Positions 29,156-61,399 of a stretch of 64,000 nucleotides of DNA are shown here, piece after piece. The notes under the pieces are model-generated. The model did no database searches and had not been told where the DNA came from. It was given only the letters and a program-made list of their open reading frames with translations. Position numbers and translations under genes: made by a program. The stretch spans positions 101,894-165,893 of IMG/VR virus record IMGVR_UViG_3300033074_001674; one strand, written 5' to 3'. This DNA comes from a virus (Duplodnaviria > Caudoviricetes). Each line of letters starts with the position of its first letter. Positions within the stretch are counted from its first letter, which is position 1.

Positions 29156-29179
29156 GCGCGTAAACACCATCTTGATACG

Positions 29180-29207
29180 AAAAAAGCGGGCCTGCATGAC
29201 CCGCTTT
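29180..29207 (-). terminator. Intrinsic terminator after major capsid gene
   Basis: Minus strand AAAGCGGGTC-ATGCA-GGCCCGCTTTTTT. Confidence 0.85.
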
Positions 29208-29223
29208 CTCCATTATGGAATTA

Positions 29224-46494: not shown

Positions 46495-46841
46495 AATGGT
46501 ATCTCTTTCTTCTCTCCTAATTAATACCCCGGCTCAGGCGGCGCCTGCCTTAAAACCGGAAGGTGAAAAAGATGTGGTGAGGAAGGAGGGCAGGAAGAGT
46601 GGGTGTGGGTTGTTGGGCGGCGGTTTTGGTTGAACCGTGCCGAAGGCACGAGTTAGATGATGGCTACCCCCGGCCCCGATGCGATTCTCCTCACTGAAAT
46701 GAAATGAAAAAGACCCCCCGGGGAGAGGAGTGTTGCCATTCGGCGCCACTAGGTGCGCGGTTCTGTCGCTGAGCGCGAACGCTCACCCCACTGGCGCCAA
46801 TCGGCGACGCCACGGCGCGTCAAGTCCAGCAATCCCAATAG

Positions 46842-46857
46842 CGGCATGCAGCATGCT
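46842..46857 (+). promoter_or_regulatory. Sigma54-type -24/-12 promoter P0
   Basis: CGGCAT-GCAGC-ATGCT (GG-N10-GC). Confidence 0.6.
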
Positions 46858-46893
46858 GTAGAGTCAAGCGGCCAATGACGGCCGGAGGATACC

Positions 46894-47157
46894 ATGAAGA
46901 GTCTGACCCAAGCTGGTCTCGAGTACCTCGCCGCGACGCAAGCGTGCTCCCACGCTGCCCGCGTCTGGCGCAACAATCTGCCGCTGGAGCGGCTGACCGG
47001 CAGGCTCGCGGCGGACGACCCAGCGTGGCAGCGGTACGTGGTCGCCACCCGTCGCCAGCAGCGCGCTGCCCGGGCGTACGACGCGGCCTGCCGCGTCGCG
47101 TCGCTGGAAGCCGTGCTCGCGGCCCCGTGGCACGACAGGGTTATCCGAGCCTGCTAG
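46894..47157 (+). CDS. Hypothetical early protein (87 aa)
   Basis: GGAGGATACC-ATG. Confidence 0.7.
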   Translation: MKSLTQAGLEYLAATQACSHAARVWRNNLPLERLTGRLAADDPAWQRYVVATRRQQRAARAYDAACRVASLEAVLAAPWHDRVIRAC

Positions 47158-47170
47158 CAGGCTCTCCGCT

Positions 47171-47251
47171 CCCCCGGGGCGCTTGCCCCGGGGGAGCTAT
47201 CAAGCTAAGCTATACAGCAAGCCGATAAGTAAGTAACGGGAGGATACAATG
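47171..47251 (+). repeat. Hairpin plus sigma70-like promoter/leader, copy 1 (copy 2 at 50295-50370)
   Basis: CCCCGGG..CCCGGGG hairpin, TTGCCC-N17-TAAGCT, ATACAGCAAG.CGATAAG, GGAGGATAC. Confidence 0.75.
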
Positions 47252-47536
47252 GCTGGTCTGATTGTGGTCGTCTCTCTTACGCTCATTCTGTTGTCTGTTG
47301 CGCAGATTGTCCGGGCCGAACTGAGGCTCGCCCGGACGGAGCGTGTCCGGGCCGCGCGTGAGAGCGCGCGTGTCATGGGTGAGTACCACGGGCCACGTCC
47401 AAAGCGCGCCGTCTCGCCAACAAAGACCACCGTTAACCTTCCTGTTATGACGGAGCAAGAGATTCAGGAAGAGTATCAAACGCTGGTCACGCAATGCACA
47501 GTGATTGTCCACAACCCATTCGCCCGGGCGCGTTAA
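47249..47536 (+). CDS. Small membrane-anchored protein
   Basis: GGAGG RBS; N-terminal hydrophobic helix. Confidence 0.7.
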   Translation: MAGLIVVVSLTLILLSVAQIVRAELRLARTERVRAARESARVMGEYHGPRPKRAVSPTKTTVNLPVMTEQEIQEEYQTLVTQCTVIVHNPFARAR

Positions 47537-47559
47537 GCGCCCGGATTGGAGGATTAAAC

Positions 47560-47886
47560 ATGCGTTGCACATTCTGCGATTGGTCGAGCGCGGAGCTTGC
47601 AGTTTTCGAGGAGGATATAGCTATCCACGAGGACAGCGGGCTGCCAACGTGTAGCGATAGCGAGTGTCTCGAGAAAGCCGACGCTATCGTGGCCGGAGAA
47701 ATGGCCATGCGTCCGGCCCGACTCGTGCGCTACTGGCGCGCCCGCATGGGTGAGTGTCTCCGGATTGCTGGACGGGACTGGATTGGCGGCATGCGCCAAG
47801 CTCACCGGTTCGGACACTCGGAGACTGAGAACGAGAGCCAGGAGCGCGCGGATACCGTGCGTTTCCTGACGCGCGTGGCGCGCTAG
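47560..47886 (+). CDS. Small Zn-finger-like protein
   Basis: GGAGG RBS; CTFC...C....C. Confidence 0.7.
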   Translation: MRCTFCDWSSAELAVFEEDIAIHEDSGLPTCSDSECLEKADAIVAGEMAMRPARLVRYWRARMGECLRIAGRDWIGGMRQAHRFGHSETENESQERADTVRFLTRVAR

Positions 47887-47902
47887 GGATTGGGGTCCCG
47901 GG

Positions 47903-47966
47903 GTTCAGCCCCAGGGTCCCGGCCCGTCCGCGCTCCGCGCGGCGCCCCAGGGCGTTGGGGTAGAAC
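47903..47966. repeat. GTTC...GAAC structured repeat E1 (64 bp)
   Basis: Aligns with E2-E8; central hairpin CCGCGC-TCC-GCGCGG. Confidence 0.85.
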
Positions 47967-48047
47967 GAGTTACGAGGAGCGAGACAAAAGCGCTCGCCTC
48001 ATGGCGCCAGATGGACACACGCCCGCTGCGCGGGCTGGGGTTATGAC

Positions 48048-48063
48048 GGGCACGGCTCCTGCT
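48048..48063 (+). promoter_or_regulatory. Sigma54-type promoter P1
   Basis: GGGCAC-GGCTC-CTGCT. Confidence 0.7.
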
Positions 48064-48079
48064 ATGGGTAGAGTGGAGG

Positions 48080-48322
48080 ATGAACATGGAACGTTGCGAT
48101 GTGTGTCAGATGGAGTTCCCTTCGTCTCAACCGCAGCCCGCCGTGGCCGATGCGCCTCTCGGCGGGGGCATGTGGGGCTATCTCTGTGAGTCGCATCTGG
48201 GTCACGCGCGCGGCCCGATGACCAAGCTCGTGCAAGAGTTGGCCTGGCAAGAGTTTACGACCAAGCTCGACAGGGTGCTCATAACTCCCTGCGATTGCGG
48301 GACTTGCGAGGATTGCTCGTAA
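48080..48322 (+). CDS. Small Cys/His-rich protein
   Basis: GGAGG RBS; CDVC, DA..GG.WGYLC..H, CDCGTC. Confidence 0.75.
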   Translation: MNMERCDVCQMEFPSSQPQPAVADAPLGGGMWGYLCESHLGHARGPMTKLVQELAWQEFTTKLDRVLITPCDCGTCEDCS

Positions 48323-48340
48323 GTCATTGGCCGGTGGGCG

Positions 48341-48404
48341 GTTCAAGCTCACCGGCCCGGGCGCGCCGCCAAAGCGCGGCGAGGCCCGGCCGTTCCGGCT
48401 GAAC
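48341..48404. repeat. Structured repeat E2 (64 bp)
   Basis: GTTCAAG...CGCCGC-CAAAGC-GCGGCG...CTGAAC. Confidence 0.85.
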
Positions 48405-48525
48405 GGTCGCCCCGGCGCCCGCCAAACATTTCAGATGCGTCGCACAATCGCCTCGCTGGGTCCCATTTGACACGCAATCAGCCGGGGTAGCACGAGAATC
48501 ATTGGAGTTACGTCGCCAGACCCAT

Positions 48526-48541
48526 TGGCAGCCAGCTTGCT
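48526..48541 (+). promoter_or_regulatory. Sigma54-type promoter P2
   Basis: TGGCAG-CCAGC-TTGCT. Confidence 0.7.
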
Positions 48542-49129
48542 CTATGGTCTATCGTCCGCGCGGCCGAGTGAAGCGAGTAGAGACAAGCTCTCTCCGCTCA
48601 ACGCCCGCGCGCTACAGCCAGCGGTATCCGCAAACCGGCTGGTGGCGGCATTTGACAATTTGCCCCGGCGGGATTGGGAGCGCTCCCAATCTCTGGACAC
48701 TCCGCGCGAGCTGAGCATCTCCCCCGGTTTCTGACGCAAGTTAGCCTCACGTGAGCCGTTGCGACCTCCAAAGGGTCCCGACGTAACTTTGTGGGTCAGA
48801 ACAGAAGCCAAAGGTGTGCGCTCATGGTAACGCGCGCAGGAAATAAGCTCGCCAATATGCGCAGAGAATGCCGCGACGGCGGTAGCAGAGCGCAGCGGGC
48901 GATTCCTAGTCTTGCACGGCGTATACTTGTATGCCACCGACAAGCGGGACCCTGTTTCACGTCCTGGGCGTGCCGGCGCTGGCGCCATGTAGCAGCAAGC
49001 AACGCGTAATCGCGAGCGCGAAGCTTGTGGGCAGCAAGTAGTCTCGGGTCGCAAGGAACCCCGGTATCTTGAGCGGTTCGAGCCCGCAATGGCGCAACGT
49101 GTCCTCCCACTGGGGCCTGGGTTCGAGCG

Positions 49130-49193
49130 GTTCGAGCCCAGCGCCCCGGGCCAGCCGCGCTCCGCGCGGCGCCCGCGGGAGATGGGGTGGAAC
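49130..49193. repeat. Structured repeat E3 (64 bp)
   Basis: GTTCGAG...GCCGCGC-TCC-GCGCGGC...GGAAC. Confidence 0.85.
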
Positions 49194-49256
49194 GTTTCAT
49201 ATGCGCGTCACGAAACCTATCTGCGCCACATTCAACGGAGATTGCTCGAGATATGA

Positions 49257-49272
49257 TGGCACGGAGGGTGCA
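49257..49272 (+). promoter_or_regulatory. Sigma54-type promoter P3
   Basis: TGGCAC-GGAGG-GTGCA. Confidence 0.7.
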
Positions 49273-49305
49273 TTGGGTGGGGAGCGCGAAACGCGCGGAG
49301 GAAAC

Positions 49306-49692
49306 ATGAGCCGTCTTTACCTTCTCAACGCATTCTCCCTCAACATGCTCTCGTTCGACGAAGAACAAGAGCTCATCCCGCCCATGCGGGTGGTCGTCAA
49401 CCCGATGTCGCCGAAGGATGCGGCGCGGGTGGTCCAGGAAGCGTACAACAACATCCTGGCGCCCGGCTTCCCGCGGGGGCTCAACCTGCACGCCCACATC
49501 GGCCACGAGAGCACGGCCGCGCTACTGAGCAAGATGCTCAACATCCCTCTCCACGCCGACCGCGCCACCGTGACGATGCTACCGGGTGACATCGCCGTCG
49601 TCGCCCAGTACGTCGGCCCGCGTCTCCCCGAGGGTGCCACGTCGCTCCCCGAGGGTGCCACCATCCGCTTCTACCTCGTGGAAGTGGAGTAG
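49306..49692 (+). CDS. acrIII-1: DUF1874 (STIV B116/YddF) family protein; AcrIII-1-type cA4 ring nuclease
   Basis: YLLNAFSLNML, IGHESTA, DRATV.M.PGD, RLPEG family motifs; GGAGG RBS. Confidence 0.82.
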   Translation: MSRLYLLNAFSLNMLSFDEEQELIPPMRVVVNPMSPKDAARVVQEAYNNILAPGFPRGLNLHAHIGHESTAALLSKMLNIPLHADRATVTMLPGDIAVVAQYVGPRLPEGATSLPEGATIRFYLVEVE

Positions 49693-49712
49693 CCAGCCAG
49701 GGATTCCTGGGG

Positions 49713-49776
49713 GTTCAACCCCAGGGTCCCGGGCGCGCCGCCAAAGCGCGGCGAGGCCTGGAGGCTTGGCCTGAAC
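49713..49776. repeat. Structured repeat E4 (64 bp)
   Basis: 31-nt identity with the E2 core; left arm shared with E1. Confidence 0.85.
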
Positions 49777-49870
49777 GTCCTGGAGCGCGGGTGCAACATT
49801 TCTACTGCATGAGGCGTTTCATTGGGACCCATCCGCGCTGGGTAGCACGGAGAGCGCTAGAGTTACGTCG

Positions 49871-49886
49871 TGGCATCGGTATTGCT
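49871..49886 (+). promoter_or_regulatory. Sigma54-type promoter P4
   Basis: TGGCAT-CGGTA-TTGCT. Confidence 0.75.
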
Positions 49887-49907
49887 CTAGAGTGTCGCGG
49901 AGGAAAC

Positions 49908-50285
49908 ATGATGGAAAACACTGCAACGGGACCGTGCGAACGGTGCGAAAATAACTCGGCAGACTCTCGTGGATACGCCGGGCGCTTGTGCTGGGATTGC
50001 TCTGTCGAGTACGTGCTCGACAATCCTGGCCCGGAAGAGTGTGAAGAGCTTCTCGTGGCGATGCGCGACATCGCCGGAGATTGCTCTGTGGACGGGTGCA
50101 AGAACCCGGCTTTGCCCGAGGATTGCTCCGCGTACTGCGCGCTGCACAGAATCGAAGTATGCGGCGACGGAGATTTCCCGACGTGTGCGTGCGATGACGC
50201 AATCCGCGCCATCCGCTTCGTCCGAAACATCGTGCGGCCCGAACTTTTCTGGCCGTCCCTCGGTGGACCGCGGCGCGAAGAATAG
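49908..50285 (+). CDS. Cys-rich acidic protein
   Basis: GGAGG RBS; CERC, CWDC, CSVDGC, YCALH. Confidence 0.75.
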   Translation: MMENTATGPCERCENNSADSRGYAGRLCWDCSVEYVLDNPGPEECEELLVAMRDIAGDCSVDGCKNPALPEDCSAYCALHRIEVCGDGDFPTCACDDAIRAIRFVRNIVRPELFWPSLGGPRREE

Positions 50286-50294
50286 CCTTCCCCG

Positions 50295-50370
50295 CCCCCG
50301 GGCGCTTGCCCCGGGGGCGCTATCAAGTTAAGCTATACAGCAAGACGATAAGACAACGGAGGATACCATG
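50295..50370 (+). repeat. Hairpin plus sigma70-like promoter/leader, copy 2
   Basis: Near-copy of 47171-47251; TTGCCC(50306)-N17-TAAGCT(50329). Confidence 0.75.
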
Positions 50371-50586
50371 AACGCGCACGAGAGTCTCATTCTGTCCGTC
50401 CGTCGCCTGCGTGCGCTCCTCGCGAAGGAGCGCGGGGTCGACGAGGAGAGCCAGGGCGCTTACGACGCCCTGGAGCGCGCCCTGCGGGGCGAGCAGCCCC
50501 TGGGCTCCACGCTCGCCCACCTGGCAAGTCGGGCTTGCTTGGCAGGTGACCTGGCTCACGCCGCGCACCAGGAGGTGCGCTCGTGA
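50368..50586 (+). CDS. Hypothetical protein (72 aa)
   Basis: GGAGGATACC-ATG. Confidence 0.7.
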   Translation: MNAHESLILSVRRLRALLAKERGVDEESQGAYDALERALRGEQPLGSTLAHLASRACLAGDLAHAAHQEVRS

Positions 50587-50627
50587 GCCGAATGCGCCGC
50601 TATAGCTAGCAAGATGGGCCCTGGGCG

Positions 50628-50690
50628 GTTCAAGCTCACCGGCCCGGCCGCGCGCGGGACGCGCAAGAGGCCTGGACGTTGGGCTGGAAC
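50628..50690. repeat. Structured repeat E5 (63 bp)
   Basis: Left arm identical to E2, right arm identical to E6. Confidence 0.85.
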
Positions 50691-50747
50691 GAGACGGAGC
50701 GTGGCGCCAAATGGACACACCTGCCACGGATGCGCCACGGGTTAGGC

Positions 50748-50763
50748 TGGTATGGTGCGTGCT
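50748..50763 (+). promoter_or_regulatory. Sigma54-type promoter P5
   Basis: TGGTAT-GGTGC-GTGCT. Confidence 0.65.
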
Positions 50764-50788
50764 ATATAGAAGATTGGAGGGTCAAGCG

Positions 50789-51298
50789 ATGAACGAGAAC
50801 AAAGCAAAAGCATCAGAAGAGCGAGAGCTTGCGAGGCTTGGAGCCTCCCTTCGGGACCTGAGGCAAACCCTGGCGGCGGTCGACCTGCGCATCAATCAGC
50901 CGATGTCCACACTGCCAGAGGAGTACTTCCGCTCCGTCGGCGAGGTCTACTTCGAGCTAAAGCAGACCGAACGCAGGCTAATGGACCTGCGCGCAAAGGT
51001 CAACGGGCGCTGTCTCCGCGCATGGAAGGCCAAAGAGGAGAGGCTCAACTCCATCACGTCAATCAGGCAGCTAACCCACACCGAGCTAGGGAAGCTGCTG
51101 CGTACGCGCGAGCGAGGGTGGAGCGGCGACCGCCTCCGCATCGCCAACAAGCTCATGGGCTACCCGGCCAAGAGCTGGAGCACCGTTCTGGCCGAGGCCA
51201 GGACGTTGGCTCTGGCCGAGCTTAACCGACGACGGCAGGCCGCAGACCGCCGCCGCATCGGCTGCTGCGACGACCCTGGGCATTGCTGGCCTTACTAG
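50789..51298 (+). CDS. Hypothetical coiled-coil protein
   Basis: GGAGG RBS before ATG 50789. Confidence 0.7.
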   Translation: MNENKAKASEERELARLGASLRDLRQTLAAVDLRINQPMSTLPEEYFRSVGEVYFELKQTERRLMDLRAKVNGRCLRAWKAKEERLNSITSIRQLTHTELGKLLRTRERGWSGDRLRIANKLMGYPAKSWSTVLAEARTLALAELNRRRQAADRRRIGCCDDPGHCWPY

Positions 51299-51319
51299 GT
51301 CAGTAGCCGCGGGCCTTGG

Positions 51320-51382
51320 GTTCAACCCTAGGGCCCCGGCCCGCCCGCAAAGAACGGGCGCCCGCGGACGTTGGGCTGGAAC
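51320..51382. repeat. Structured repeat E6 (63 bp)
   Basis: GTTCAA...GCCCG-CAAAGAA-CGGGC...GGAAC. Confidence 0.85.
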
Positions 51383-51485
51383 GCGCCGGGATGCGTGTCA
51401 GATACGCCTCGAGGCGCAGGCGGGGAGTGTGTCCAAACGGCGCCGCCCGTACGTCTCACGGACGGAGATTGCTAGGCTTACGCTT

Positions 51486-51501
51486 CGGTCCGGCCCCTGC
51501 T
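51486..51501 (+). promoter_or_regulatory. Sigma54-type promoter P6
   Basis: CGGTCC-GGCCC-CTGCT-ATAGAG. Confidence 0.55.
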
Positions 51502-51870
51502 ATAGAGTAACCTGCCGACGGCGGGCGACAACAGCCGACGCGACCCGACGACACCGGGCGGTCTTTTACAACTCGAGCCTATCTGTAAGTACCGTTTCCG
51601 CGTCCTGTTTCCCGGTCTCGCCGTACCTAAACGGTTTGGGGAAACGCTCGGAGTAGACGGTCCGCGCGGGACTTACAGGGATGGTCTGATGGTGCGTATC
51701 CGCTACTGCGCGCTATCTTCCTATAGGCAAAAGGTTTGAGACGTGAGAGGCAATGAGTCTCCGGTAGCGGGGAGACAATCTGCCTGGGGAGAAAATCTGC
51801 CCATATGCCAGCTATATGGCGGTGGGCTAACAAGTTAGCGGCAATACCGCCGCAGAAAGGAGGTTCTGGC

Positions 51871-52164
51871 ATGAGGTTGGAGCATCTGGTGAAGATGGTG
51901 AGGGTCCTGGATAACTCGCACCGGCAGGCGCAGCGGGCCAGGGACAACGCGATGGAGCGCACCCAGCAGCTACCTGCGGCGCAGGCCTGGCTCCTCAGGA
52001 TGGCCGCCGAGGAGGAGCCCGACGACCGCCTGGAGCGGGCCGCGGCGGAGTACATCAAGCTGGTCAGGGGGGTCCGCTCGGCAAGGGAAGCCCAGGCGCG
52101 GAACGAGCGCAACGCGCTCGACGCCGCCGAGCGCCTGAAGTACGAACTGAGACTGGAGGACTAG
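51871..52164 (+). CDS. Hypothetical helical protein
   Basis: AAGGAGG RBS before ATG 51871. Confidence 0.75.
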   Translation: MRLEHLVKMVRVLDNSHRQAQRARDNAMERTQQLPAAQAWLLRMAAEEEPDDRLERAAAEYIKLVRGVRSAREAQARNERNALDAAERLKYELRLED

Positions 52165-52265
52165 CATCTCCCGGGGCGGAGCGCATTAGTGTCCCGCCCC
52201 GTACCAAACTTGTCCCATACGGGACGTATTTGACCGCATATCGACGGAGTTTGCTGGCGTTGTGC

Positions 52266-52281
52266 TGGCATGTCTCCTGCT
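52266..52281 (+). promoter_or_regulatory. Sigma54-type promoter P7
   Basis: TGGCAT-GTCTC-CTGCT. Confidence 0.7.
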
Positions 52282-52349
52282 ATACTGTGGAATGTCGGGC
52301 ACGGGCGCACCGACACCACATAACCTCTTGCGCCCATTGGAGTTTCACA

Positions 52350-52931
52350 ATGGCGATGTTCACGAGCGAGGTCCTGGCCAAGCTGCACGCCCTGGCCGCT
52401 CCCGCGGCGCGGGCGAAGGTGGAGGCTCTGGCCGACATCCACGAGGTGGCCGTCGAGACGGCCGTGAAGGAGTACGAGGGACTGCGGGCCAAGCACGAGG
52501 CTGCGGCCCTGGTGAAGGCCCTGAACGAGGCCAACGCGGTGGCGTTCCCCGCCAACAGCGACCAGGCCCGGGCGCTGCAGGGCGGCGCGGTGGGGCGCGT
52601 CGTCCTGGGTGAGGACGGCTCGGTGCGCATCACCTGGACCCTGATGGGGGCCCTGGGGTCGGGCACCGGCGCGAGCACGGGCCGTGGAAAGCGGGGCCGT
52701 GGTGGCCGGAAGTTCAAGTACTTCCACGACGGCCAGGCCCTCCCCCGCGGCTCCTCGGTGAAGGGGTTCCTCATGGAGCACTACCCCGACTCCGAGGCCG
52801 CCAGGACCATCCGGGAGTACAAGGCCAGCGAGGAGGCCGGGCTCTCCAGCGCCAAGATTGGCGCGTGGGAGGCCATCCTGAAGGACGAGGTGGTGAAGGC
52901 CCACTTCACTCGGGAGCAGGTGAACATCTAG
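52350..52931 (+). CDS. Hypothetical protein, paralogue of 56235-56864 (possible DNA-binding)
   Basis: GGAG RBS; extreme G/C third-position bias; shared F.YFH.G and K(I/L)GAW.AI motifs. Confidence 0.8.
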   Translation: MAMFTSEVLAKLHALAAPAARAKVEALADIHEVAVETAVKEYEGLRAKHEAAALVKALNEANAVAFPANSDQARALQGGAVGRVVLGEDGSVRITWTLMGALGSGTGASTGRGKRGRGGRKFKYFHDGQALPRGSSVKGFLMEHYPDSEAARTIREYKASEEAGLSSAKIGAWEAILKDEVVKAHFTREQVNI

Positions 52932-53019
52932 CCCGCTCCTCGGTCGGCGCCCGGGGGAGGATGGTCCTCCCCCGGGCCGGCTTCCTAAACTATCCAAGGG
53001 GGATGGTGAAGGATAGCAG

Positions 53020-53382
53020 ATGTCGTTCGTAGTTGAGGGATTCTTGCGTTCTGGTGGCAAAATAACACGACTAGTTGACACCCGCCTTGAGGCGGAACGC
53101 GAGTTCCACGACCTCAAGTCGCTTTGCGCAGATGTCCAGGTGATAGGCGCCGAGGGCATTATCGCGCAGTGGAGCGAGAAAGTGGACAGGCGCGAGGAGG
53201 CAGAGAAACTAATCAGGCTCCTGGCATCGGCCGGGACGGCCTGGGAATGGAATAGGGCCCGTGCGTTTGGCCAGAAGGTCGGCGCACCTGACCCAGGAGC
53301 GTGGTCAAAGCCCGCAGGTGTGCTGCGGGTGCTCCAGTGGGCCCTGGAACGTGGTGTGTGGAAAGGAATGGCAAGCGCGTGA
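53020..53382 (+). CDS. Hypothetical protein
   Basis: 120 aa; AAGGA RBS. Confidence 0.65.
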   Translation: MSFVVEGFLRSGGKITRLVDTRLEAEREFHDLKSLCADVQVIGAEGIIAQWSEKVDRREEAEKLIRLLASAGTAWEWNRARAFGQKVGAPDPGAWSKPAGVLRVLQWALERGVWKGMASA

Positions 53383-53804
53383 GCGCCAGGGCTTTTCAGA
53401 TGGACATGTCCACCGGGAACTCCCGGATGGACCGGATGAACTCCCGACAGGTCGGGAGGCTCCACAAGTGGAACGGTAAGGAGGCGCGGGTCAAGTCCAG
53501 CCAGACGACCCGCAAGCGGGTCGGAGTCAAGCTCGACCGGCGGCGGCTCAAGGAGCTCCTGGCCGAGGAGCCTCTGGTGGGGGCGATGAGCCTGGAAGAG
53601 GAGAACTCGCTCAGGAGCGACCTCCACATGCCCCGCCTCATGACCGAGGAGGAGCGGCTGGAGGAGGCGCGCTACGCCTTCCTGGCCTGGCAGAAGCAGT
53701 ACTGCGAGGACGAAGAGGAACGCACGTATCTGCAGTTCCTGGAGCGTCTGGACAGGACTCTCCTGAAGTACGACGAGCGGGAACTGGCCAACATCATCGA
53801 CTAG
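53379..53804 (+). CDS. Hypothetical protein
   Basis: GTGA overlap with upstream stop; GC3-biased codons. Confidence 0.65.
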   Translation: MSARAFQMDMSTGNSRMDRMNSRQVGRLHKWNGKEARVKSSQTTRKRVGVKLDRRRLKELLAEEPLVGAMSLEEENSLRSDLHMPRLMTEEERLEEARYAFLAWQKQYCEDEEERTYLQFLERLDRTLLKYDERELANIID

Positions 53805-53828
53805 GCCGGTTGTCGTTCAGGGCGCCTG

Positions 53829-53891
53829 GTTCAAGCCAGGCGCCCCCGCCCGGCCGCAAAGCCGGCCGAGGCCTGGAAGATGGGCATGAAC
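53829..53891. repeat. Structured repeat E7 (63 bp)
   Basis: GTTCAAG...CGGCCG-CAAAGC-CGGCCG...TGAAC. Confidence 0.85.
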
Positions 53892-53974
53892 CCTCCTTGA
53901 AACGTATCCCATATCTCTGGGGCCCACTGTGTCCAATTGGCGACACGCACCATTGTAGTGTAAGAAGTTACGCG

Positions 53975-53990
53975 CGGCACGTCGCTTGCT
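53975..53990 (+). promoter_or_regulatory. Sigma54-type promoter P8
   Basis: CGGCAC-GTCGC-TTGCT. Confidence 0.75.
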
Positions 53991-54014
53991 CCCGGTATTA
54001 TGGTGGAGGATTCT

Positions 54015-54176
54015 GTGGTAAATGTCCTGAGCATTAACGGCGTTCTTGTCCAGGTCTCGGATAAGCTGGATGAGAAGTATCCAGAGGACAGGGCCATCAT
54101 CAATCACATCAAGGAAGCCCTTGAGCACGGCGCCAAGGAAGGACGCTATGCGGGGGTCTACTGGGGATTGCTGTAA
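54015..54176 (+). CDS. 53-aa hypothetical protein (not in ORF track)
   Basis: GGAGG then GTG; MVNVLSINGVLVQVSDKLDEKYPEDR...YWGLL. Confidence 0.7.
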   Translation: MVNVLSINGVLVQVSDKLDEKYPEDRAIINHIKEALEHGAKEGRYAGVYWGLL

Positions 54177-54186
54177 TGGAGGACCA

Positions 54187-54441
54187 GTGGCGCGTATCAT
54201 AATCGATGTGCCTGACAACGTAGACGGGGACGACCTTCAAATCGTCATCTGTGGAGCGTTGGCAGAGTACCAGTACAGCCGGTTTCCATCTCCTGAAATC
54301 TATGTCAGGGAGAGGTACAGGAATCTGAAGTCCACTAGCCCAGAGTTCTTGCGCAAGGTGGCGCAGGTCGAGCGCTATCTTAACATCGCGCAAACGGTCC
54401 GCGATGCAATGGCAAAGGACAATTTTCTGGTGGAGGAGTAG
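54187..54441 (+). CDS. Hypothetical protein
   Basis: GGAGG then GTG 54187. Confidence 0.7.
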   Translation: MARIIIDVPDNVDGDDLQIVICGALAEYQYSRFPSPEIYVRERYRNLKSTSPEFLRKVAQVERYLNIAQTVRDAMAKDNFLVEE

Positions 54442-54445
54442 GGCG

Positions 54446-54661
54446 ATGACGCAGCGCGTCACACGTGTGGTGGCCACATTCCCATCTAGCAAGGTGGAAC
54501 GTCTGGTGGAAGGACATCCATCAGCAGTAGGAACAAAGGGAAGATGGGCCAGAGAAGCCCGACTCCTGGCTAAGGAAGGGGCCCTGGATGTGATTGTCAC
54601 ATCCCCGGCCGGCAAGGTCATCTACTGGTGGCATTCGCGCCACGGAAGGATTGACAAATGA
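54446..54661 (+). CDS. Hypothetical protein
   Basis: GGAG RBS; operon packing. Confidence 0.65.
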   Translation: MTQRVTRVVATFPSSKVERLVEGHPSAVGTKGRWAREARLLAKEGALDVIVTSPAGKVIYWWHSRHGRIDK

Positions 54662-54906
54662 GTTGTTACTATCACGGCTCTGTGTGTGATGGTTCCAGAT
54701 GTCCTCCAGATGAGCCTACATACAGAAAGCCTCAGTACGGTTCATTCGTAATCGATGTGCAGGACCACATGTTCTGCACTGGCATAACGTTCTTCACGGC
54801 CACAGGGCGGCAAATCTTCTACTGTGAGGTTGGCTGCGACTCGGATGTGTCGCAGGTGGTGGAGGCGTTCTTCAACGGCATGGAAATCGGATGGTATGCC
54901 AAATGA
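54658..54906 (+). CDS. Hypothetical protein
   Basis: ATGA coupling on both sides. Confidence 0.65.
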   Translation: MSCYYHGSVCDGSRCPPDEPTYRKPQYGSFVIDVQDHMFCTGITFFTATGRQIFYCEVGCDSDVSQVVEAFFNGMEIGWYAK

Positions 54907-55178
54907 GCGTTGATAGGACTGCCTTGGCGGCGGACCTCATGTTCAACTCGCACGGCGAGGCATATCGCGATGTCCAGGAGGCCAAATCAATCCTCCTGAC
55001 TCGCTGGGTCCCAAAGGGGCCGTTCAACCTCAGTCAGGTATATGCCATGGAGCCTATCCCTGACATTTCTCTCTATCTGGCCGTCGTAGAACTGCTAGAG
55101 GAGAAGGTCATCAAGGGAATCCATCCCTACGACCATAGGGTCCGTCGCCACGACCAGATGGCATATGAGGCAGTCTGA
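54903..55178 (+). CDS. Hypothetical protein
   Basis: ATGA and TGATG coupling. Confidence 0.65.
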   Translation: MSVDRTALAADLMFNSHGEAYRDVQEAKSILLTRWVPKGPFNLSQVYAMEPIPDISLYLAVVELLEEKVIKGIHPYDHRVRRHDQMAYEAV

Positions 55179-55558
55179 TGGACAGGGAAATTCGGTCAGC
55201 GACGACGTATGAGCAGTACTGGCGCGCCATGCTGCGCGCCGGCCAAATTCAAGGACTTTGTGCGCCCGTCACTAACAAGGTAAAGGCGCTAAAGCGTAGC
55301 ATGATGACCCTAATTCAGGGCGCCGCGCGCGAGAATCCAGAAATGCTCAGTGCAACTCATAAGGATAGCATTAGGAATCTAAACATCTACTGGTGGCGCA
55401 ATCAGCCAGAAGATTGGACCTACGGAGACTTCGAGGTCCTGAATTGGCAGATGAGTGAGGAATTCGATACTGGATATTACTACATCGCCAACTGTGCAAT
55501 GTGGTGCGTTCCTGAATCAGCATGGGAAGCTTGGGGGATTAGGGTAGACGATAGATAG
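55178..55558 (+). CDS. Hypothetical Trp-rich protein
   Basis: TGATG coupling; 126 aa. Confidence 0.65.
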   Translation: MDREIRSATTYEQYWRAMLRAGQIQGLCAPVTNKVKALKRSMMTLIQGAARENPEMLSATHKDSIRNLNIYWWRNQPEDWTYGDFEVLNWQMSEEFDTGYYYIANCAMWCVPESAWEAWGIRVDDR

Positions 55559-55565
55559 GTGTACA

Positions 55566-55802
55566 ATGGACTCTATAATTCAGAGAGCCAAAAGAGATGG
55601 AAATTTCTCTAGGATGGCCATAGAAATAAGAAGGGCAGGAGAAATGACCATCTATGTAATATGTTGGAAGGGAACCGAGCGTTGCTCAAGTTACGAACTA
55701 GTAGAAAACACATGTTTCGACTCCTATGAGTCAGCAGCTAAATATCAATCAGAACATTACTCAATAGGACAAACACATATCCGACCATTGAAAATGAATT
55801 AG
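55566..55802 (+). CDS. Hypothetical protein
   Basis: AGGTG RBS; ends 8 bp before E8. Confidence 0.55.
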   Translation: MDSIIQRAKRDGNFSRMAIEIRRAGEMTIYVICWKGTERCSSYELVENTCFDSYESAAKYQSEHYSIGQTHIRPLKMN

Positions 55803-55809
55803 GAGAGGT

Positions 55810-55873
55810 GTTCAAGCTCAGGGCCCCGGCCCGCACCGCAAAGCCGGTGCGCCCAAGGCAGATGGGCCTGAAC
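55810..55873. repeat. Structured repeat E8 (64 bp)
   Basis: GTTCAAG...GCACCG-CAAAGC-CGGTGC...CTGAAC. Confidence 0.85.
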
Positions 55874-56010
55874 TGTCCTGGACGGAGCTCCTATATTCAG
55901 GAGCGGTTACGATTGTATGACCTATGCAACTTTTTTATTGCAGGTGCAGTGGCTTGGTGGCAGTAGAATGGTGTGCCCTATGGATTGGGTTCAATTGTGG
56001 TGCGTTGCGT

Positions 56011-56135
56011 TTCGTCTCATGAGACGTATCCCCACCGTGGTCATTGGAGTAGGAGCGATGCTGGGGTCCCGGTTCGTTTCACCCGGCGTAACCCTCGGCC
56101 CCACAAAGCTTTAGACCATTGGCACCGGGACTGCT
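56011..56135 (+). promoter_or_regulatory. Conserved upstream element plus sigma54-type promoter P9 (homologous to 60311-60436)
   Basis: CGTCTCATGAGACG palindrome, GGAGTAGGAGCGA, GTAACC, then TGGCAC-CGGGA-CTGCT at 56120. Confidence 0.7.
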
Positions 56136-56234
56136 CTATGGTGAGGTGCGCGTGACCGTCCCGAAGGTCGGGATTAGTAACGCGGTCCTTTCACCCCGTG
56201 TTTTACCTGCCCTTTTGGGCACAGGAGTTTTATC

Positions 56235-56864
56235 ATGTTCCCTACCGATGTGTTGGCGTCCTTCCACAAGCGTGAGATGGAGGAGGCCCTGGAGAAGGTC
56301 ACGCAGTACTGCAACCTGATGGACAAGGACCCCGACGAGGGCAGGGCGGAGTACAAGAAGCTCCGCGCCAACTTCGAGGCCGCGGAGGCCAAGAAGCGCC
56401 TGGCCGAGCGCCTGCGGGTGCTGTCCAAGGCCATCAACGGGGCCGTCATCCTGCTCGCGCAGGAGAACGGCGGCGACGTGGAGGCGGCCCTCATCGAGTA
56501 CATCAAGAGCGAGGGCGTCCTGACCCTCGAGGTCGTCCAGGACGAGGACGAGGGCACGCAGTTCGTCATCCGGTCCAAGGCGCACTTGGCCAAGGACGCG
56601 GTGGCCACCTCGAGCCAGGCCAACCGCTCGACCCGCGAGGGCCGCCGGTCGTCCTTCCGGTACTTCCACCGGGGGGAGGCCATCAACGGGGCCCTGGCCA
56701 AGTTCCTCCGCGACAACTACCCGACCTCCAGGGCAGTCGAGCGCCTGGACGAGGTGGATGCCAAGTACAACGCGGGCGAGAGCAAGAGCAAGCTCGGCGC
56801 CTGGCAGGCCATCATCGCCGACCGGGACCTGGCCGACCTGTTCGACCGTGAGGAGGTGGCCTAG
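56235..56864 (+). CDS. Hypothetical protein, paralogue of 52350-52931
   Basis: AGGAG RBS; GC3-biased; aligns end to end with its paralogue. Confidence 0.8.
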   Translation: MFPTDVLASFHKREMEEALEKVTQYCNLMDKDPDEGRAEYKKLRANFEAAEAKKRLAERLRVLSKAINGAVILLAQENGGDVEAALIEYIKSEGVLTLEVVQDEDEGTQFVIRSKAHLAKDAVATSSQANRSTREGRRSSFRYFHRGEAINGALAKFLRDNYPTSRAVERLDEVDAKYNAGESKSKLGAWQAIIADRDLADLFDREEVA

Positions 56865-56886
56865 CCACAACTAGGGCGTCCGCCCG

Positions 56887-56952
56887 TAGGACCAGGCAGT
56901 ACAGGACTGCCCCTTTCCAGAGGTGACGAGGTTCAACTCCTCGCTGGTCCTA
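56887..56952 (+). ncRNA. Miniature tRNA-like RNA 1
   Basis: TAGGACCAG/CTGGTCCTA acceptor, CAGT-ACAGG-ACTG D-arm, shrunken anticodon arm, CGAGG-TTCAACT-CCTCG T-arm. Confidence 0.65.
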
Positions 56953-56997
56953 TTCCGTTAGGCCCACTTTGGACCTGACCTAGATAGTGAGGAATCC

Positions 56998-57225
56998 ATG
57001 CCCCGAGTCGTCTGTCCAATCTCCAAGGCCACCTTCCTCGAGGCCGCGACCTCGATGGAGTCGTCCTTCGACGGAAGTCCTGACCACATCCAGATGAATC
57101 CCATCCAGTACGGCACTGGGTCCTTGGGATGGCAGGGCCAGGGGACCGTCGAGGTCATCGTGGCCGGAATCCCGGTCCAGTGCATCGCCCACCTGAAGCT
57201 CGTGGTCAAGGGGTCCAAGGGCTAG
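56998..57225 (+). CDS. Small conserved protein (CP.S...F...A / GTGSLGW / V.GSK family)
   Basis: GAGG RBS; motif pattern recalled from small Planctomycetota proteins. Confidence 0.7.
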   Translation: MPRVVCPISKATFLEAATSMESSFDGSPDHIQMNPIQYGTGSLGWQGQGTVEVIVAGIPVQCIAHLKLVVKGSKG

Positions 57226-57264
57226 GAGAAGAGGGTCAGGGGATGCCCTATAAATCCCCAACAT

Positions 57265-57337
57265 GGGCCTGTAGCTCAATTGGTAGAGCATCCGCCTTTT
57301 AAGCGGGGGGTTCCGGGTTCGAGTCCCGGCAGGCCTA
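57265..57337 (+). tRNA. tRNA-Lys(TTT)
   Basis: GGGCCTG/CAGGCCT acceptor, AGCTCAATTGGTAGAGC D-arm, CTTTTAA loop, GGTTCGAGTCC T-arm. Confidence 0.93.
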
Positions 57338-57356
57338 TCCCATCTAACCAGGTCTA

Positions 57357-57653
57357 ATGACCAAGGAGAAGTCCGTGGCCATCGTACAGTGCATCAACTG
57401 CAAGAACTGGACCAATCAGGTCAAGAAGGTGTCCAGAGGCGGCGCCTGCGAGGAGACGCCGCACTGCAAGGCCTCCTGGCGCGAGCACCTCCGTCTCCTC
57501 AAGGAGGAGGCCAGGGCCTTCGCCGAGGTCAAGCGGCGAAGGAAGCAGGAGAAGAACGCGCGCAACAAGGCCAATAGGGCCGCGAGGGCCAAGGCCAACC
57601 AGGACGTGGCCTCTGGCGCCAACTTGAAGAACACCTACAAGATGGGCAAGTAG
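57357..57653 (+). CDS. Basic Zn-finger-like protein
   Basis: CINC...C.....HC plus Lys/Arg-rich tail; GC3-biased. Confidence 0.7.
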   Translation: MTKEKSVAIVQCINCKNWTNQVKKVSRGGACEETPHCKASWREHLRLLKEEARAFAEVKRRRKQEKNARNKANRAARAKANQDVASGANLKNTYKMGK

Positions 57654-57676
57654 CGCCCATACCGCCTTCGACAATT

Positions 57677-57719
57677 AGGCCCCGCTCAGGCGATGACCTG
57701 GGCGGGGTCTTTTTGTTTT
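57677..57719 (+). terminator. Intrinsic terminator ending the GC-rich block
   Basis: AGGCCCCGCTCAGG-CGATGA-CCTGGGCGGGGTCT-TTTTGTTTT. Confidence 0.88.
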
Positions 57720-57740
57720 AACGCATTCAGGGCGCAATCC

Positions 57741-57908
57741 GTTCAAGCCCACAGGCCCGGGCCGCTCCTGGATTGATTGGCGTTAAAGGACTTATGGCGC
57801 GCAACTTTGGTAAACCCCCCGGGTTTTTGGGTATGCCCTGATTCGTTCAATCTCAACGCCCCTTAACGAACTATAAGGACTTATGGCGGGCCTGGAAAGA
57901 TGTTGAAT
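57741..57908. repeat. Two degenerate copies of the E repeat
   Basis: GTTCAAGCCCACAGGCCCGGGCC at 57741; GTTCAA(57845)...GGCCTGGAAAGATGTTGAAT(57908) keeps the 64-bp span. Confidence 0.6.
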
Positions 57909-58381
57909 ATCTCCATAATTCCATCAATGGCGTCTGCAACATGGTAAAAGTATACCTAAATCCTTGAAAATAAAGGAGTTACGCCTAAATGGATGGATTG
58001 GATAATGCTCCACTCCAAATACCGTCATAACACCTTCACGCTGACTCTTATATTACTACATGTGTTATGAAGAGTATTTAGTACAAACGGCCAGCCAGTG
58101 TACTATTCAACTAGTACACTATTAGTATAGGTTGGGGCCTAATTGTACGGGGGTTTCAGGTGCTCCATCTCAAAGAATCTGTTAGGGAATAAGGGTACCA
58201 TTCTAATGGGTTCAGGAGGGTATTGAGGTGGAAAACACACTAAGCGATATGCGCCGCAGATTCCTATGGATTATCTGTTGGCTTATAGGTCATACCGAAA
58301 GGCCAAGCAATACTCCTAAAGAGTGGCAATGTTATTGGTGTGATAGATATCATCATATTGTAGAACTAGTGGAGCACTAAA

Positions 58382-58576
58382 ATGGACCAGGAGATTCGCG
58401 AAGGTGATTCCTTCATATCTAAGGATAGAATCCCAGATATAGTATGGAATATTCTAATACACGACGCACGCAGATTTAACGGGGATATCCGCATCTGGCT
58501 AGATGAAATTGGCATCCAATGGCGGCGGCCTGGAGTCGAAATACCCGGCTGTATACAACAGTTTCATGAAAGTTAA
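58382..58576 (+). CDS. Hypothetical protein
   Basis: GGAG RBS. Confidence 0.6.
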   Translation: MDQEIREGDSFISKDRIPDIVWNILIHDARRFNGDIRIWLDEIGIQWRRPGVEIPGCIQQFHES

Positions 58577-58726
58577 ATATGGATAACAAAATAAGGGAAA
58601 ATGAACGCGCTGGAAACGATAAAGTCATATAAGCTAATCGACGTGATTAAAATGGAAGAAGAACAAGAAAAGGCGCGAAGAATCGTCGAATTAGAAGCAG
58701 AACTGGCTAAGTTAAAGGAACAATAA

Positions 58727-58957
58727 ATGCTAGCTAATCGCGCGACCTGGTACATGCTCAACGATATATTGGGCAAAAATGCATCCCAATTGCAAGGAGA
58801 ATTTTGGGCAAATGCGCCTCACTCTACAATAGCTCGGGCGATGGAGCAACTTTCCAAAACATACAGCATTTGGTATATAGTGAGGCGCGAAGCTAAAGCA
58901 AAACCCCTCATGAAGGCAAAAGACCTAATTAGGGAAGTATATGAGTGGTATCACTAA
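58727..58957 (+). CDS. Hypothetical protein
   Basis: AAGGA RBS. Confidence 0.6.
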   Translation: MLANRATWYMLNDILGKNASQLQGEFWANAPHSTIARAMEQLSKTYSIWYIVRREAKAKPLMKAKDLIREVYEWYH

Positions 58958-58980
58958 AGAAACAATAAAGGTAGGTAAAC

Positions 58981-59166
58981 TTGGATAAAGATGATATCTT
59001 GTTCCGTCTGCGTAAATGGGCAGAAATCTGCCGCCAGGACGCTCCGCCACGGACAGACAAACTAGTGGACCTGCTAGAAGATGCCGCAACTGAAATCGAG
59101 AAATTGCGCACATCCATCGAAGATAAAGATTCCGAACTATACTGGCACAAATTACATTGGTCTTAA
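58981..59166 (+). CDS. Small phage protein (DI..RL....E...DLL..AA.EIE.LR family)
   Basis: Motif shared with the frameshifted copy at 60083. Confidence 0.65.
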   Translation: MDKDDILFRLRKWAEICRQDAPPRTDKLVDLLEDAATEIEKLRTSIEDKDSELYWHKLHWS

Positions 59167-59504
59167 GTAGTGAGGGGATTGTGGTAATTACAGATGAAAT
59201 GCGCATCATGCTAGGTGCGCTAGCGGGCTTTATGGCAATGTTTACATTTGTTATCGGATTGTATCTTGATAGCATGTACAACGATGTGGAATATACTTCC
59301 TGCGAACATCCAAAAGATACAGCCCTAATAGACACCAAGAAAAATAATAACATCTATATAACAGAAGTAGATGTAGTCACTAAATGTCCTCTGTGTCTCG
59401 ATTCTATCGAGGTTCAGAATGCGATTACTACTTGTCACAAGTGCAGAACTAAACACCATCGAGATTGCTTGAAAGAATTCGCAACTTGTGGGATTTGTAA
59501 ATAA
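59157..59504 (+). CDS. Membrane-anchored prokaryotic RING-finger protein (true start may be downstream)
   Basis: TM helix then CPLC-x12-CHKC-x3-HH-x2-C-x6-CGIC. Confidence 0.7.
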   Translation: MVLSSEGIVVITDEMRIMLGALAGFMAMFTFVIGLYLDSMYNDVEYTSCEHPKDTALIDTKKNNNIYITEVDVVTKCPLCLDSIEVQNAITTCHKCRTKHHRDCLKEFATCGICK

Positions 59505-59515
59505 GTGAAACGCCT

Positions 59516-59722
59516 ATGGTAATCTTGGCTATAATTGCTGCAATTCTATTACCTTTGATAATTGCGATAGCAATAGCTAGAGATTTCAAGAAACATATCA
59601 AACAACAGAGTAAATGGGAAAAAGAAGATAAGGAATGGCGAGATTACAATAATGCGTGGTGGGAATGGTACAATAAAGGCGGGATGAATACAGAAGAAGG
59701 CCGTAAAAGGATGCCAAAATGA
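59516..59722 (+). CDS. Small membrane protein
   Basis: N-terminal TM helix. Confidence 0.6.
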   Translation: MVILAIIAAILLPLIIAIAIARDFKKHIKQQSKWEKEDKEWRDYNNAWWEWYNKGGMNTEEGRKRMPK

Positions 59723-60082
59723 AACTAAAAGACATCTTCAACTATCCAACAATTTATTATTGGAGATAAAATTGGACAAGAGTGAACTAGTAGATTTCCT
59801 ACGCAACAATCTCTCTATTGAACTACAAGTGGCTGGCTCTAGAATAACAGTTCGTCTCAAACTAATTGAGCCAGGCAGTATTGCGCCAACTGTAATAGCT
59901 GAAGATTATGAGTGGTTAGATTGATTAGAGTAATAACAAGCTTAGGAACTCAAGGATTTTGCGAATATGGCGAAGATAACAAAGAACGACTCTGGTACCG
60001 TTTCAAACCAACAGAAAACTGGAGATTGGTCGCCTACTAATAGACAACAATCCAGCTCCCGGCCGATTGGATTAAACAACAA

Positions 60083-60287
60083 ATGAGCGAAGAAGATATT
60101 ATCTATCGCCTCAAAAAGGGCAGAAATACGACGACAAATTCCCTCGCGTAAATCTGTTCAAGAGGGCAAACCTGATAGATTGGCCGACCTTTTGGATGAG
60201 GCGGCAGATGAAATTGAATCCCTAAGAGGGTGCCACGTAAGCGGATGTGGTTGTATTGATTGTCATCCAGGATGTTATTACGGATGA
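60083..60287 (+). pseudogene. Frameshifted small phage gene (EDIIYRL / RAEIRRQIPSRKSVQEGKPDRLADLL)
   Basis: Frame 0 stops after 22 aa; the conserved-looking body continues in the +1 frame from the AAAAAGGG run. Confidence 0.65.
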
Positions 60288-60310
60288 TTCGTCTCACGTC
60301 CCAGATGCGG

Positions 60311-60436
60311 TTCGTCTCATGCGACGAACAGGCCACGGTGGCGTCGGGAGTAGGAGCGACGGGCGCGGGACGGTTCGTGTCGCGCGTTGTAACCTCCGAC
60401 GTGGCAATGAGTTACATTGAAGGCACGCGACGTGCT
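60311..60436 (+). promoter_or_regulatory. Conserved upstream element plus sigma54-type promoter P10
   Basis: Homologous to 56011-56135; AGGCAC-GCGAC-GTGCT at 60421. Confidence 0.65.
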
Positions 60437-60474
60437 TTGTGGGGGGCGACGGCAGGCGGCGGAAAGGATTTAGT

Positions 60475-60606
60475 ATGAGAGATTTTCTAGCAGCAGTTCT
60501 AACCACGACCATTTGTTTGGCAATTTGGCTTTTCGGTATTGTCCTAGCGTGTTTGCCCTACATTGTCGTGGGGGCCATATTAATTTTGGTATTCAAGCAC
60601 TGTTAA
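60475..60606 (+). CDS. 43-aa hydrophobic membrane peptide (not in ORF track)
   Basis: AAGGA RBS; MRDFLAAVLTTTICLAIWLFGIVLACLPYIVVGAILILVFKHC; TAATG-coupled to HNH. Confidence 0.65.
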   Translation: MRDFLAAVLTTTICLAIWLFGIVLACLPYIVVGAILILVFKHC

Positions 60607-61034: not shown

Positions 61035-61098
61035 CTCAATTAGTTAGAGTGCTCGCCTCATAAGCGAAGAGTTGCCGGTGCAAGTCCGGCAGGTCCCA
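61025..61098 (+). tRNA. tRNA with CAT anticodon (probably Ile2/lysidine, else elongator Met)
   Basis: GGGACCT/AGGTCCC acceptor, CTCATAA loop, GCCGG-TGCAAGT-CCGGC T-arm. Confidence 0.88.
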
Positions 61099-61142
61099 TC
61101 CAAACAAAGAGTGGAATAGGTCACTCTTAGAAGGAGTCCATA

Positions 61143-61361: not shown

Positions 61362-61399
61362 GCCAAATGGCCAGGACGGTCCTGGCTGGCGCCTTCAAA

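Follow-up and report, generated by a model that had tools for sequence, protein, structure and literature searches.

In the textbook cases, a phage infection begins at sigma-70-type promoters or with an RNA polymerase supplied by the phage itself. In phage SPO1, the host-takeover module lies near the genome end and contains many small early genes, in groups with their own strong host-type promoter, ribosome-binding site (RBS) and terminator; its promoters are of the housekeeping-sigma type, unlike the sites described here. These sites form an array of eleven -24/-12 elements, the form of sigma-54 (RpoN) promoters, in a tailed phage (Duplodnaviria; Caudoviricetes) represented by the IMG/VR virus record IMGVR_UViG_3300033074_001674. 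The stretch analysed, called the window, was the last 64 kb (64,000 nucleotides, positions 101,894 to 165,893) of this 165,893-bp record, for which CheckV gave a completeness of 74%. Judged from sequence and conservation, the eleven sites are very probably promoters, and it appears moderately probable that the sigma-54 holoenzyme of the host reads them.

Bacterial sigma-54 promoters are defined by a conserved GG at -24 and a TGC at -12 at fixed spacing (PMC3844500). When the eleven sites were compared with bacterial RpoN promoters (glnAp2, pspA and the Salmonella chromatin immunoprecipitation (ChIP) set; PMC3844500), they shared the GG and TGC, the fixed spacing, the restriction of constraint to two blocks and the lack of a -35 element, and candidate upstream sites lay within the usual 70-150 bp range. 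They differed in that T at -9 and A/G at -8 were conserved as well, and in forming an eleven-copy array in a phage, where small ORFan genes follow them as a block. Phage YuA offers a published precedent for a sigma-54-type phage promoter, with a single sigma-54-like promoter among sigma-70-like and phage-specific ones (PMC10914365), in contrast to the present array carrying a whole gene block. No paper on a phage sigma-54 array of this kind was found by full-text literature search, YuA being the sole published phage case found.

The arrangement was also comparable to the promoter-early stem-loop (PeSL) cassettes of T4-type phages, in which a stem-loop and an early promoter occupy the gaps between small ORFan genes (PMC2839356, PMC4122927). 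As in those cassettes, eight of the 11 promoters followed a structured repeat, and the cargo was gained, lost or replaced between relatives. However, PeSL promoters have a sigma-70 consensus with AT-rich upstream DNA, whereas the core here was of the sigma-54 type in GC-rich DNA. The stem-loop here was a repeat of fixed length (63-64 bp), 58-247 nt ahead of the promoter, and the phage was not T4-like, its terminase being nearest to siphovirus terminases. The array thus appears to join two known kinds of element, sigma-54-type promoters and PeSL-like cassettes.

The Eleven Sites

All eleven plus-strand sites proposed by an earlier sequence-only reading were found where it had placed them. They are listed from -26 to -11 with their position weight matrix (PWM) scores and, where found, orthologues in related contigs (prefix L). 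Distances to genes were counted from the C at -12.

46842..46857, plus strand: P1, weak core CGGCAT..ATGCT, 18.4 bits; heads genes 46894-47157, 47249-47536 and 47560-47886; orthologue L024:3104
48048..48063, plus strand: P2, 21.0 bits; heads a 78-aa gene, 48086-48322; cassette missing in L024
48526..48541, plus strand: P3, 20.9 bits; no open reading frame (ORF) for ~560 nt; conserved non-coding block at ~48640-48850 behind it; orthologue L024:4574
49257..49272, plus strand: P4, 19.0 bits; heads a STIV_B116-like gene (Pfam PF08960), 49306-49692; without TAnnnT downstream
49871..49886, plus strand: P5, 20.6 bits; heads 49908-50285 and 50368-50586
50748..50763, plus strand: P6, TGGTAT core, 21.8 bits; heads 50789-51298; orthologous promoter L024:5305
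51486..51501, plus strand: P7, CGGTCC core, 19.8 bits; 371 nt ahead of gene 51871-52164
52266..52281, plus strand: P8, 19.6 bits; heads 52350-52931 (193-aa family), 53020-53382 and 53577-53804; orthologues L024:6532 and L027:711
53975..53990, plus strand: P9, near-perfect sigma-54 core with the downstream TA element missing, 17.1 bits; heads seven small genes from 54015 to 55802
56120..56135, plus strand: P10, 23.1 bits; heads 56235-56864 (209 aa), 56998-57225, tRNA-Lys(UUU) at 57264-57340, and 57375-57653
60421..60436, plus strand: P11, in the ordinary-GC part of the region, 18.5 bits; heads 60475-60606, with a tRNA-Met downstream; orthologue L024:13024

A Shine-Dalgarno (SD) sequence of the GGAGGA type and a start codon followed the -12 C by 23-101 nt at nine of the 11 sites. 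The distance of 15-100 bp to a start codon, proposed for most of the sites, was borne out, in essence, at these nine and failed at the other two, P7 with its gene 371 nt away and P3 with no ORF behind it. The sites had also been described as intergenic, which was sustained; longer ORFs overlapping P4, P5, P6 and P8 were judged to be spurious N-terminal extensions, on the evidence of where the SD sequences lie and of how homologues begin. The GGTCC core of P7 was retained in L024:6049 and L030:2050, as TGGTCC in the relatives and CGGTCC here. The core and leader of P10 were identical in contig L023 (95% identical), and the P10 unit closed at a terminator at 57677-57710.

Form and Specificity of the Motif

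The motif common to the 11 sites was TGGCACG, four free bases and nTGCT, followed by T and A/G two and three bases further on. In a logo of 24 sites, taken from this phage and three related lineages, information was present only at -26..-20 (TGGCACG), at -14..-11 (TGCT), at -9 (T) and at -8 (A/G), while -38..-27 and -19..-15 were blank and no -35 information was seen. The GG and the GC were present in 24/24 sites, the T at -14 in 23/24, and the spacing was exact; this invariance was partly inflated because several of the relatives' sites had been selected by PWM or by a GG-N10-GC scan requiring T at -14.

When the record was scanned on both strands with the 24-site PWM, the 11 sites scored 17-23 bits and the best other match 13.7 bits, a gap which indicates that the list is real, specific and complete for this record. 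Leave-one-out PWM scores of the sites were 10-23 bits.

The sites were also examined with a generic, phage-independent consensus (TGGCAC-N5-TTGCW, in which GG and GC had to be intact and no more than two of the seven other positions could be wrong). The RpoN-consensus context ascribed to all of them held for eight of the 11, and P1, P6 and P7 had 3-4 mismatches; these three were placed in the same motif family by PWM score and orthology. Over the whole window a looser pattern, in which any two mismatches were allowed, was not enriched (64 matches against 57 ± 7.5 expected), so stricter enrichment tests were needed. With GG and GC fixed, the plus strand between 46.5 and 60.6 kb contained 8 matches, whereas 1.47 ± 1.18 were expected from 500 dinucleotide shuffles made within 1-kb blocks; no shuffle had as many as 8. 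All eight were among the sites listed above, and the minus strand contained three matches. A hairpin formed by GGCA...TGCT, as an N4-type promoter or an RNA stem, was rejected because the variants at -23/-22 (GGTAT, GGTCC) were uncompensated in the TGC.

Constraint between Orthologous Promoters

Contig L024 shared synteny with the window, its DNA being 68-85% identical, and eight orthologous promoter pairs were compared between the two. The changed fraction was 0.12 at -26..-20 and 0.06 at -14..-11, whereas it was 0.57 at -38..-27, 0.55 at -19..-15, 0.50 at -10..-4 and 0.54 at -3..+3. Constraint on only these two blocks is the footprint of a -24/-12 promoter, unlike the -35/-10 footprint of sigma-70. 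This is the decisive result: selection appears to keep exactly the blocks that define sigma-54 promoters, at exact spacing.

The same comparison bears on an improbable alternative, in which the sites would be host sigma-70-type extended -10 promoters composed of TGn and TATAGA or TAGAGT, with a weak -35 in an upstream GTTACG. Seven or eight of the 11 window sites did carry TAnnnT two bases past TGCT, many of them as TGCT-n-TAGAGT, and at most sites a GTTACG-like word lay 2-10 nt upstream of the TGG. The word TAGRRT also resembles the streptomycete -10 consensus. However, -10..-4 was as variable between orthologues as the spacer. Read in one register, 9/24 sites would have a C in place of the key A at -11; in the other, the TG would be two bases too far upstream and T at -7 was present in just 11/24. 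P4 and P11 had good cores without any TAnnnT, and L024:3104 and L024:8080 had good cores with no TAnnnT at the position used by the other sites. The former, orthologous to the weak-core P1, had a better sigma-54 core than P1 and had lost the TAGAGT stretch. The GTTACG-like word stood at a variable distance and was poorly conserved, -38..-27 was without information, and the invariant GG would be left unexplained. The sites did not combine a -10 TAnnnT with TGn or with a -35 at 16-18 bp, and whichever register was used, most of them lacked the A at -11 or the T at -7. Canonical sigma-70 promoters were not enriched (13 against 9.9 ± 3.2), and none was found ahead of the high-GC genes at 46.5-55.4 kb. 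The sigma-54 (RpoN) reading of the -24/-12 elements was thus supported by the invariant GG and GC, the lack of a -35, the two-block constraint and the unenriched sigma-70 promoters, and it withstood all the sequence-level tests applied.

In the low-GC parts of the plus-strand block (window 58000-61600), promoter candidates were only sigma-70-like, for example at 59818-59845 and 61516-61543, and the plus-strand region may mix two promoter classes. Elsewhere in the genome, no clear second promoter class emerged from a k-mer search.

Upstream Boxes and Cassette Architecture

Two kinds of short box and one structured repeat accompanied the sites.

46793..46808, no strand assigned: Box U (GGCGCC-N4-GGACAC type), 34 nt before P1
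48003-48018 and 50703-50718: further copies of Box U
51429-51444 and 53929-53944: further copies of Box U, inverted
56011..56026, no strand assigned: Box F palindrome (two CGTYTCA half-sites), ~100 nt before P10; twin at 60311-60326 before P11
49193, 49815, 51452, 53898 and 56075: single Box F half-sites
47903, 48341, 49130, 49713, 50628, 51320, 53829 and 55810 (span 47903..55873), plus strand: eight 63-64-bp GTTC...GAAC structured repeats

Box U occurred in either orientation, 34-57 nt ahead of the GG of P1, P2, P6, P7 and P9, and its copies were concentrated in this region of the 166-kb record. Box F occurred singly or, at P10 and P11, as an 18-bp palindrome. The last 17 kb contained 14 of the 21 Box F half-sites of the record, most of them 34-131 nt upstream of a GG. 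Both boxes were retained between orthologous promoters despite diverged flanks. They were centred at about -60 to -150, which overlaps the 70-150 bp at which the upstream activating sequences of Salmonella sigma-54 promoters typically lie (PMC3844500).

The GTTC...GAAC repeats lay 8-42 nt past a stop codon and preceded the next promoter by 58-247 nt. They folded as GC-rich hairpins, without a U tract, and four of the eight tested folded well beyond shuffled controls (z -2.9 to -4.5). They are probably terminator or insulator modules of the cassettes. The repeats also carried a T-loop-like GGTTCAAGC word and alternative folds.

Each cassette was ordered as a structured repeat, ~60-250 nt with one or two boxes, the core TGGCACG-N4-nTGCT and a short leader with a GGAGGA RBS, followed by a cargo of one to seven small genes or a tRNA; the cargo of one cassette, that of P3, was a probable non-coding RNA. 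The block of ~200 nt behind it (~48640-48850; L024:4805-4996) was 85% identical between the two genomes, with frame-breaking 1-nt indels and no ORF, and probably specifies a non-coding RNA transcribed from a sigma-54-type promoter; it had no Rfam match.

The cargo differed between relatives at several cassettes. P6 drives a 169-aa ORFan (50789-51298) here, whereas the orthologous promoter (L024:5305-5864) drives an unrelated AAA_33 kinase-like gene. P2 and its gene were missing from L024. Within the GC-rich block, a 78-aa gene of 38% GC (55566-55802) was missing from the 95%-identical L023 (L023:202-215), and appears to have been inserted or deleted recently where two cassettes meet. In the P10 unit, between two early genes and just upstream of tRNA-Lys, 56889-56950 on the plus strand gave a weak match to the model of mascRNA, a tRNA-like RNA (29 bits, E 0.02).

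This architecture also bears on whether the sites act as promoters of the genes behind them. Sigma-54 holoenzyme makes stable closed complexes without an activator (PMC3844500), and the sites might on that ground bind it as decoys, roadblocks or insulators. Such a role is highly improbable, as all 11 sites were co-oriented with the genes, nine lay 23-101 nt ahead of an SD sequence and start codon, eight came after a terminator-like repeat, and no alternative promoter candidate was found ahead of the GC-rich genes at 46.5-55.4 kb.

The GC-Rich Block and Related Contigs

Genes of the record were on the plus strand from 1 to ~44 kb, on the minus strand from ~46 to 148 kb and on the plus strand again from 148.4 kb to the end. 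The final plus-strand block corresponds to window 46.5-64 kb, and most of the sites lay in its GC-rich part.

46500..57700, plus strand: GC-rich block of small genes, GC 58-65%, G+C at third codon positions (GC3) 0.65-0.97; also in the independent assemblies L024-L031

The minus-strand block encoded the terminase, portal, a probable tape measure protein, ribonucleotide reductase, a split DnaE and a glycosylation block. DnaE was present as two ORFs ~1.1 kb apart (G000:C1:93221-97819), and the 1172-aa ribonucleotide reductase (window 40638-44156) contained an endonuclease-like insert at residues 412-601; both look like the result of an intein or homing element.

The overall GC of the phage genome was ~40%, and that of window 46.5-57 kb was 58-65%. 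The step between the two at 46.5 kb might suggest an assembly chimera or a newly imported foreign island, in which case the motifs would be uninformative on this phage. This explanation is scarcely credible. Independent assemblies from other runs (L023, L024-L029, L030 and L031) joined the same GC-rich block to flanks of ~45% GC with synteny on both sides, and P11 and further GC3-rich genes sat in DNA of ordinary GC content. Furthermore, the block was only 68-85% identical between relatives, a divergence from which it is taken to be old.

The relatives were recognised by the 193-aa early protein behind P8 (52350-52931). Together with its paralogue at 56235-56864, it belonged to a small, unannotated family that counted 16 representative clusters among 1.8 billion proteins and shared the motifs YFH, NYP-S-AA and GAW; it had no Pfam match. 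Contigs encoding the family came from several unrelated sequencing runs (L023, L024/L033, L025-L029, L030 and L031). In these relatives, a 60-66% GC block of small plus-strand genes lay beside DNA of ~45% GC, and the same motif was present.

Outside this group the array was not met. No sigma-54-like array was found in L032 and L034, more distant carriers of the 193-aa family, and the motif was not found in IMG/VR terminase relatives at 32-37% identity. The terminase relative G001 (158 kb) had a uniform GC of 32-38% with no island. A terminase search of metagenome contigs gave one 14-kb contig at 53% identity, with the early region not on it, and the 193-aa family had no match among metagenome contigs. 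No near-identical DNA was found in the phage collection searched, and no relatives were found among viral contigs through the neighbouring 314-aa protein and two early proteins. Among sequencing runs, near-identical DNA was present in ERR10802334, ERR10798457 and ERR3281024, among others.

Codon Usage and Expression Timing

Genes behind the motif had a GC3 of 0.65-0.97 and shunned TTA (0/153 Leu), AGA (3/150 Arg) and AAA (4/75 Lys). The remaining 98 long genes had a mean GC3 of 0.355, and the same three codons were the ones they used most. The phage tRNAs (Leu-UAA, Arg-UCU, Lys-UUU, Glu-UUC and Ala-UGC) read exactly the codons that the motif-headed genes avoid. Two codon regimes were therefore present in one phage, one in window 46500-57700 and 61143-61361 and the other in the rest of the record (G000), and the same split was seen in related contigs.

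GC-rich codons that avoid the phage tRNAs fit expression before these tRNAs accumulate, in a GC-rich host. In the simplest reading, the host would be GC-rich and the motif-headed genes would form a first-expressed module translatable by host tRNAs alone; the gene block is presumably early on this ground. The strong SD sites, together with the codon usage, likewise point to a GC-rich host. The genes of P10 and P11 may share a transcript with the tRNA-Lys and tRNA-Met, respectively, that follow these promoters.

Possible Readers of the Sites

The sequence-only reading had noted that no AAA+ bacterial enhancer-binding protein (bEBP) is encoded in the window. This observation was extended to the whole record, in which PF00158 gave a single signal and no GAFTGA-like motif was found in any of the six frames. 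The protein with this weak PF00158 signal was rejected as a bEBP, being a RuvB-like AAA+ protein instead (146 bits to RuvB). An RpoN-like gene was also absent, with no PF04552 (sigma-54) match in the 166-kb record. The T7-type polymerase family PF00940 had no match in the record, but it matched none of the control genomes either and the search was thus uninformative. Since neither an RNA polymerase, within the limit of that search, nor sigma-54 was detected in 166 kb, the host polymerase with host sigma-54 is proposed as the reader.

The record did encode a sigma-70-family sigma factor (G000 29005-29652), directly after the RuvB-like gene. It probably serves the phage itself as a middle or late factor, and it fits poorly as the reader because a -35/-10 geometry mismatches blocks 12 bp apart. 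The two genes were translationally coupled (G000:C1:28076-29652; L004:1258-2834). A 2160-aa virion protein was considered as an RNA polymerase and rejected; it gave no polymerase signal and only a weak tape-measure (PHROG) match, by which it looks like a tape measure protein.

Several points weigh against a reader of the host sigma-54 type. The conserved T at -9 and A/G at -8 fall outside the classical sigma-54 consensus, the classical T at -15 (TTGC) was not favoured (8/24 sites), and three sites departed from the consensus in the -24 block (GGTAT, GGTCC). Boxes U and F lie nearer the core than many enhancers and could just as well serve a class I activator or a repressor. High-GC Actinobacteria are not known to carry rpoN, and the host may lack it. 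In addition, the record is 74% complete, and the remainder of the genome could encode a polymerase, a sigma-like factor or an activator. On the other side, the cores stay within the range of variation of ChIP-supported Salmonella sigma-54 sites, in which C, G or A at -15 and GGCAT are also present (PMC3844500).

Part of this evidence would be accounted for by another factor from the missing quarter, namely a phage or virion-delivered RNA polymerase, a sigma-like protein or a sigma appropriator, the likeness to sigma-54 being convergent. The incompleteness of the record, the extra conserved bases at -9 and -8, the uninformative PF00940 search and the presence of a sigma-70-family gene all favour such a factor. 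Nevertheless, it is rather unlikely. Constraint falls on the very positions by which sigma-54 promoters are defined, at exact spacing, and the blocks, ~12 bp apart centre to centre, are too close for the -35/-10 geometry of the sigma-70 family. The variation from site to site was of the sigma type, unlike the near-identical 20-23-bp promoters of single-subunit phage polymerases, and the large virion protein resembled a tape measure protein rather than a polymerase.

Proposed Mechanism and Implications

With the host sigma-54 holoenzyme as the reader, host RNA polymerase carrying host sigma-54 would dock at the sites as a closed complex. The promoters would fire only once this complex had been remodelled by an AAA+ enhancer-binding protein, which might sit on the upstream boxes or work from solution. 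The start-up of the phage would thereby be tied to a host signal. The earlier suggestion that a host bEBP, or else an activator which the phage encodes at another locus, gates expression finds some support in the boxes 34-131 nt ahead of the GG, which are conserved and occur in either orientation; the activator is presumably the host's.

A broader scheme is possible and is offered tentatively. The entire immediate-early programme might be placed on host sigma-54, with the boxes imitating the enhancer of a stress- or damage-sensing bEBP of the host, so that infection itself would throw the switch. The host-like, GC-rich recoding of the genes would serve translation before the phage tRNAs are available. 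The cassettes of promoter and repeat would double as recombination points at which early genes are shuffled, as a sigma-54 counterpart of PeSL.

If the sites are sigma-54-dependent, the early block would need an active ATPase activator at entry, and start-up would be conditional on a host signal, which would represent a different logic of host takeover. The idea of PeSL, with promoter/terminator cassettes as vehicles of gene shuffling, would be extended to a second promoter class, and the genome provides a sharp example of two codon regimes within one phage. The array offers eleven paralogous promoters together with their orthologues in related phages, two boxes as candidate enhancers and a clear prediction for GG and GC point mutants, and would be a favourable test case for such host-gated start-up.

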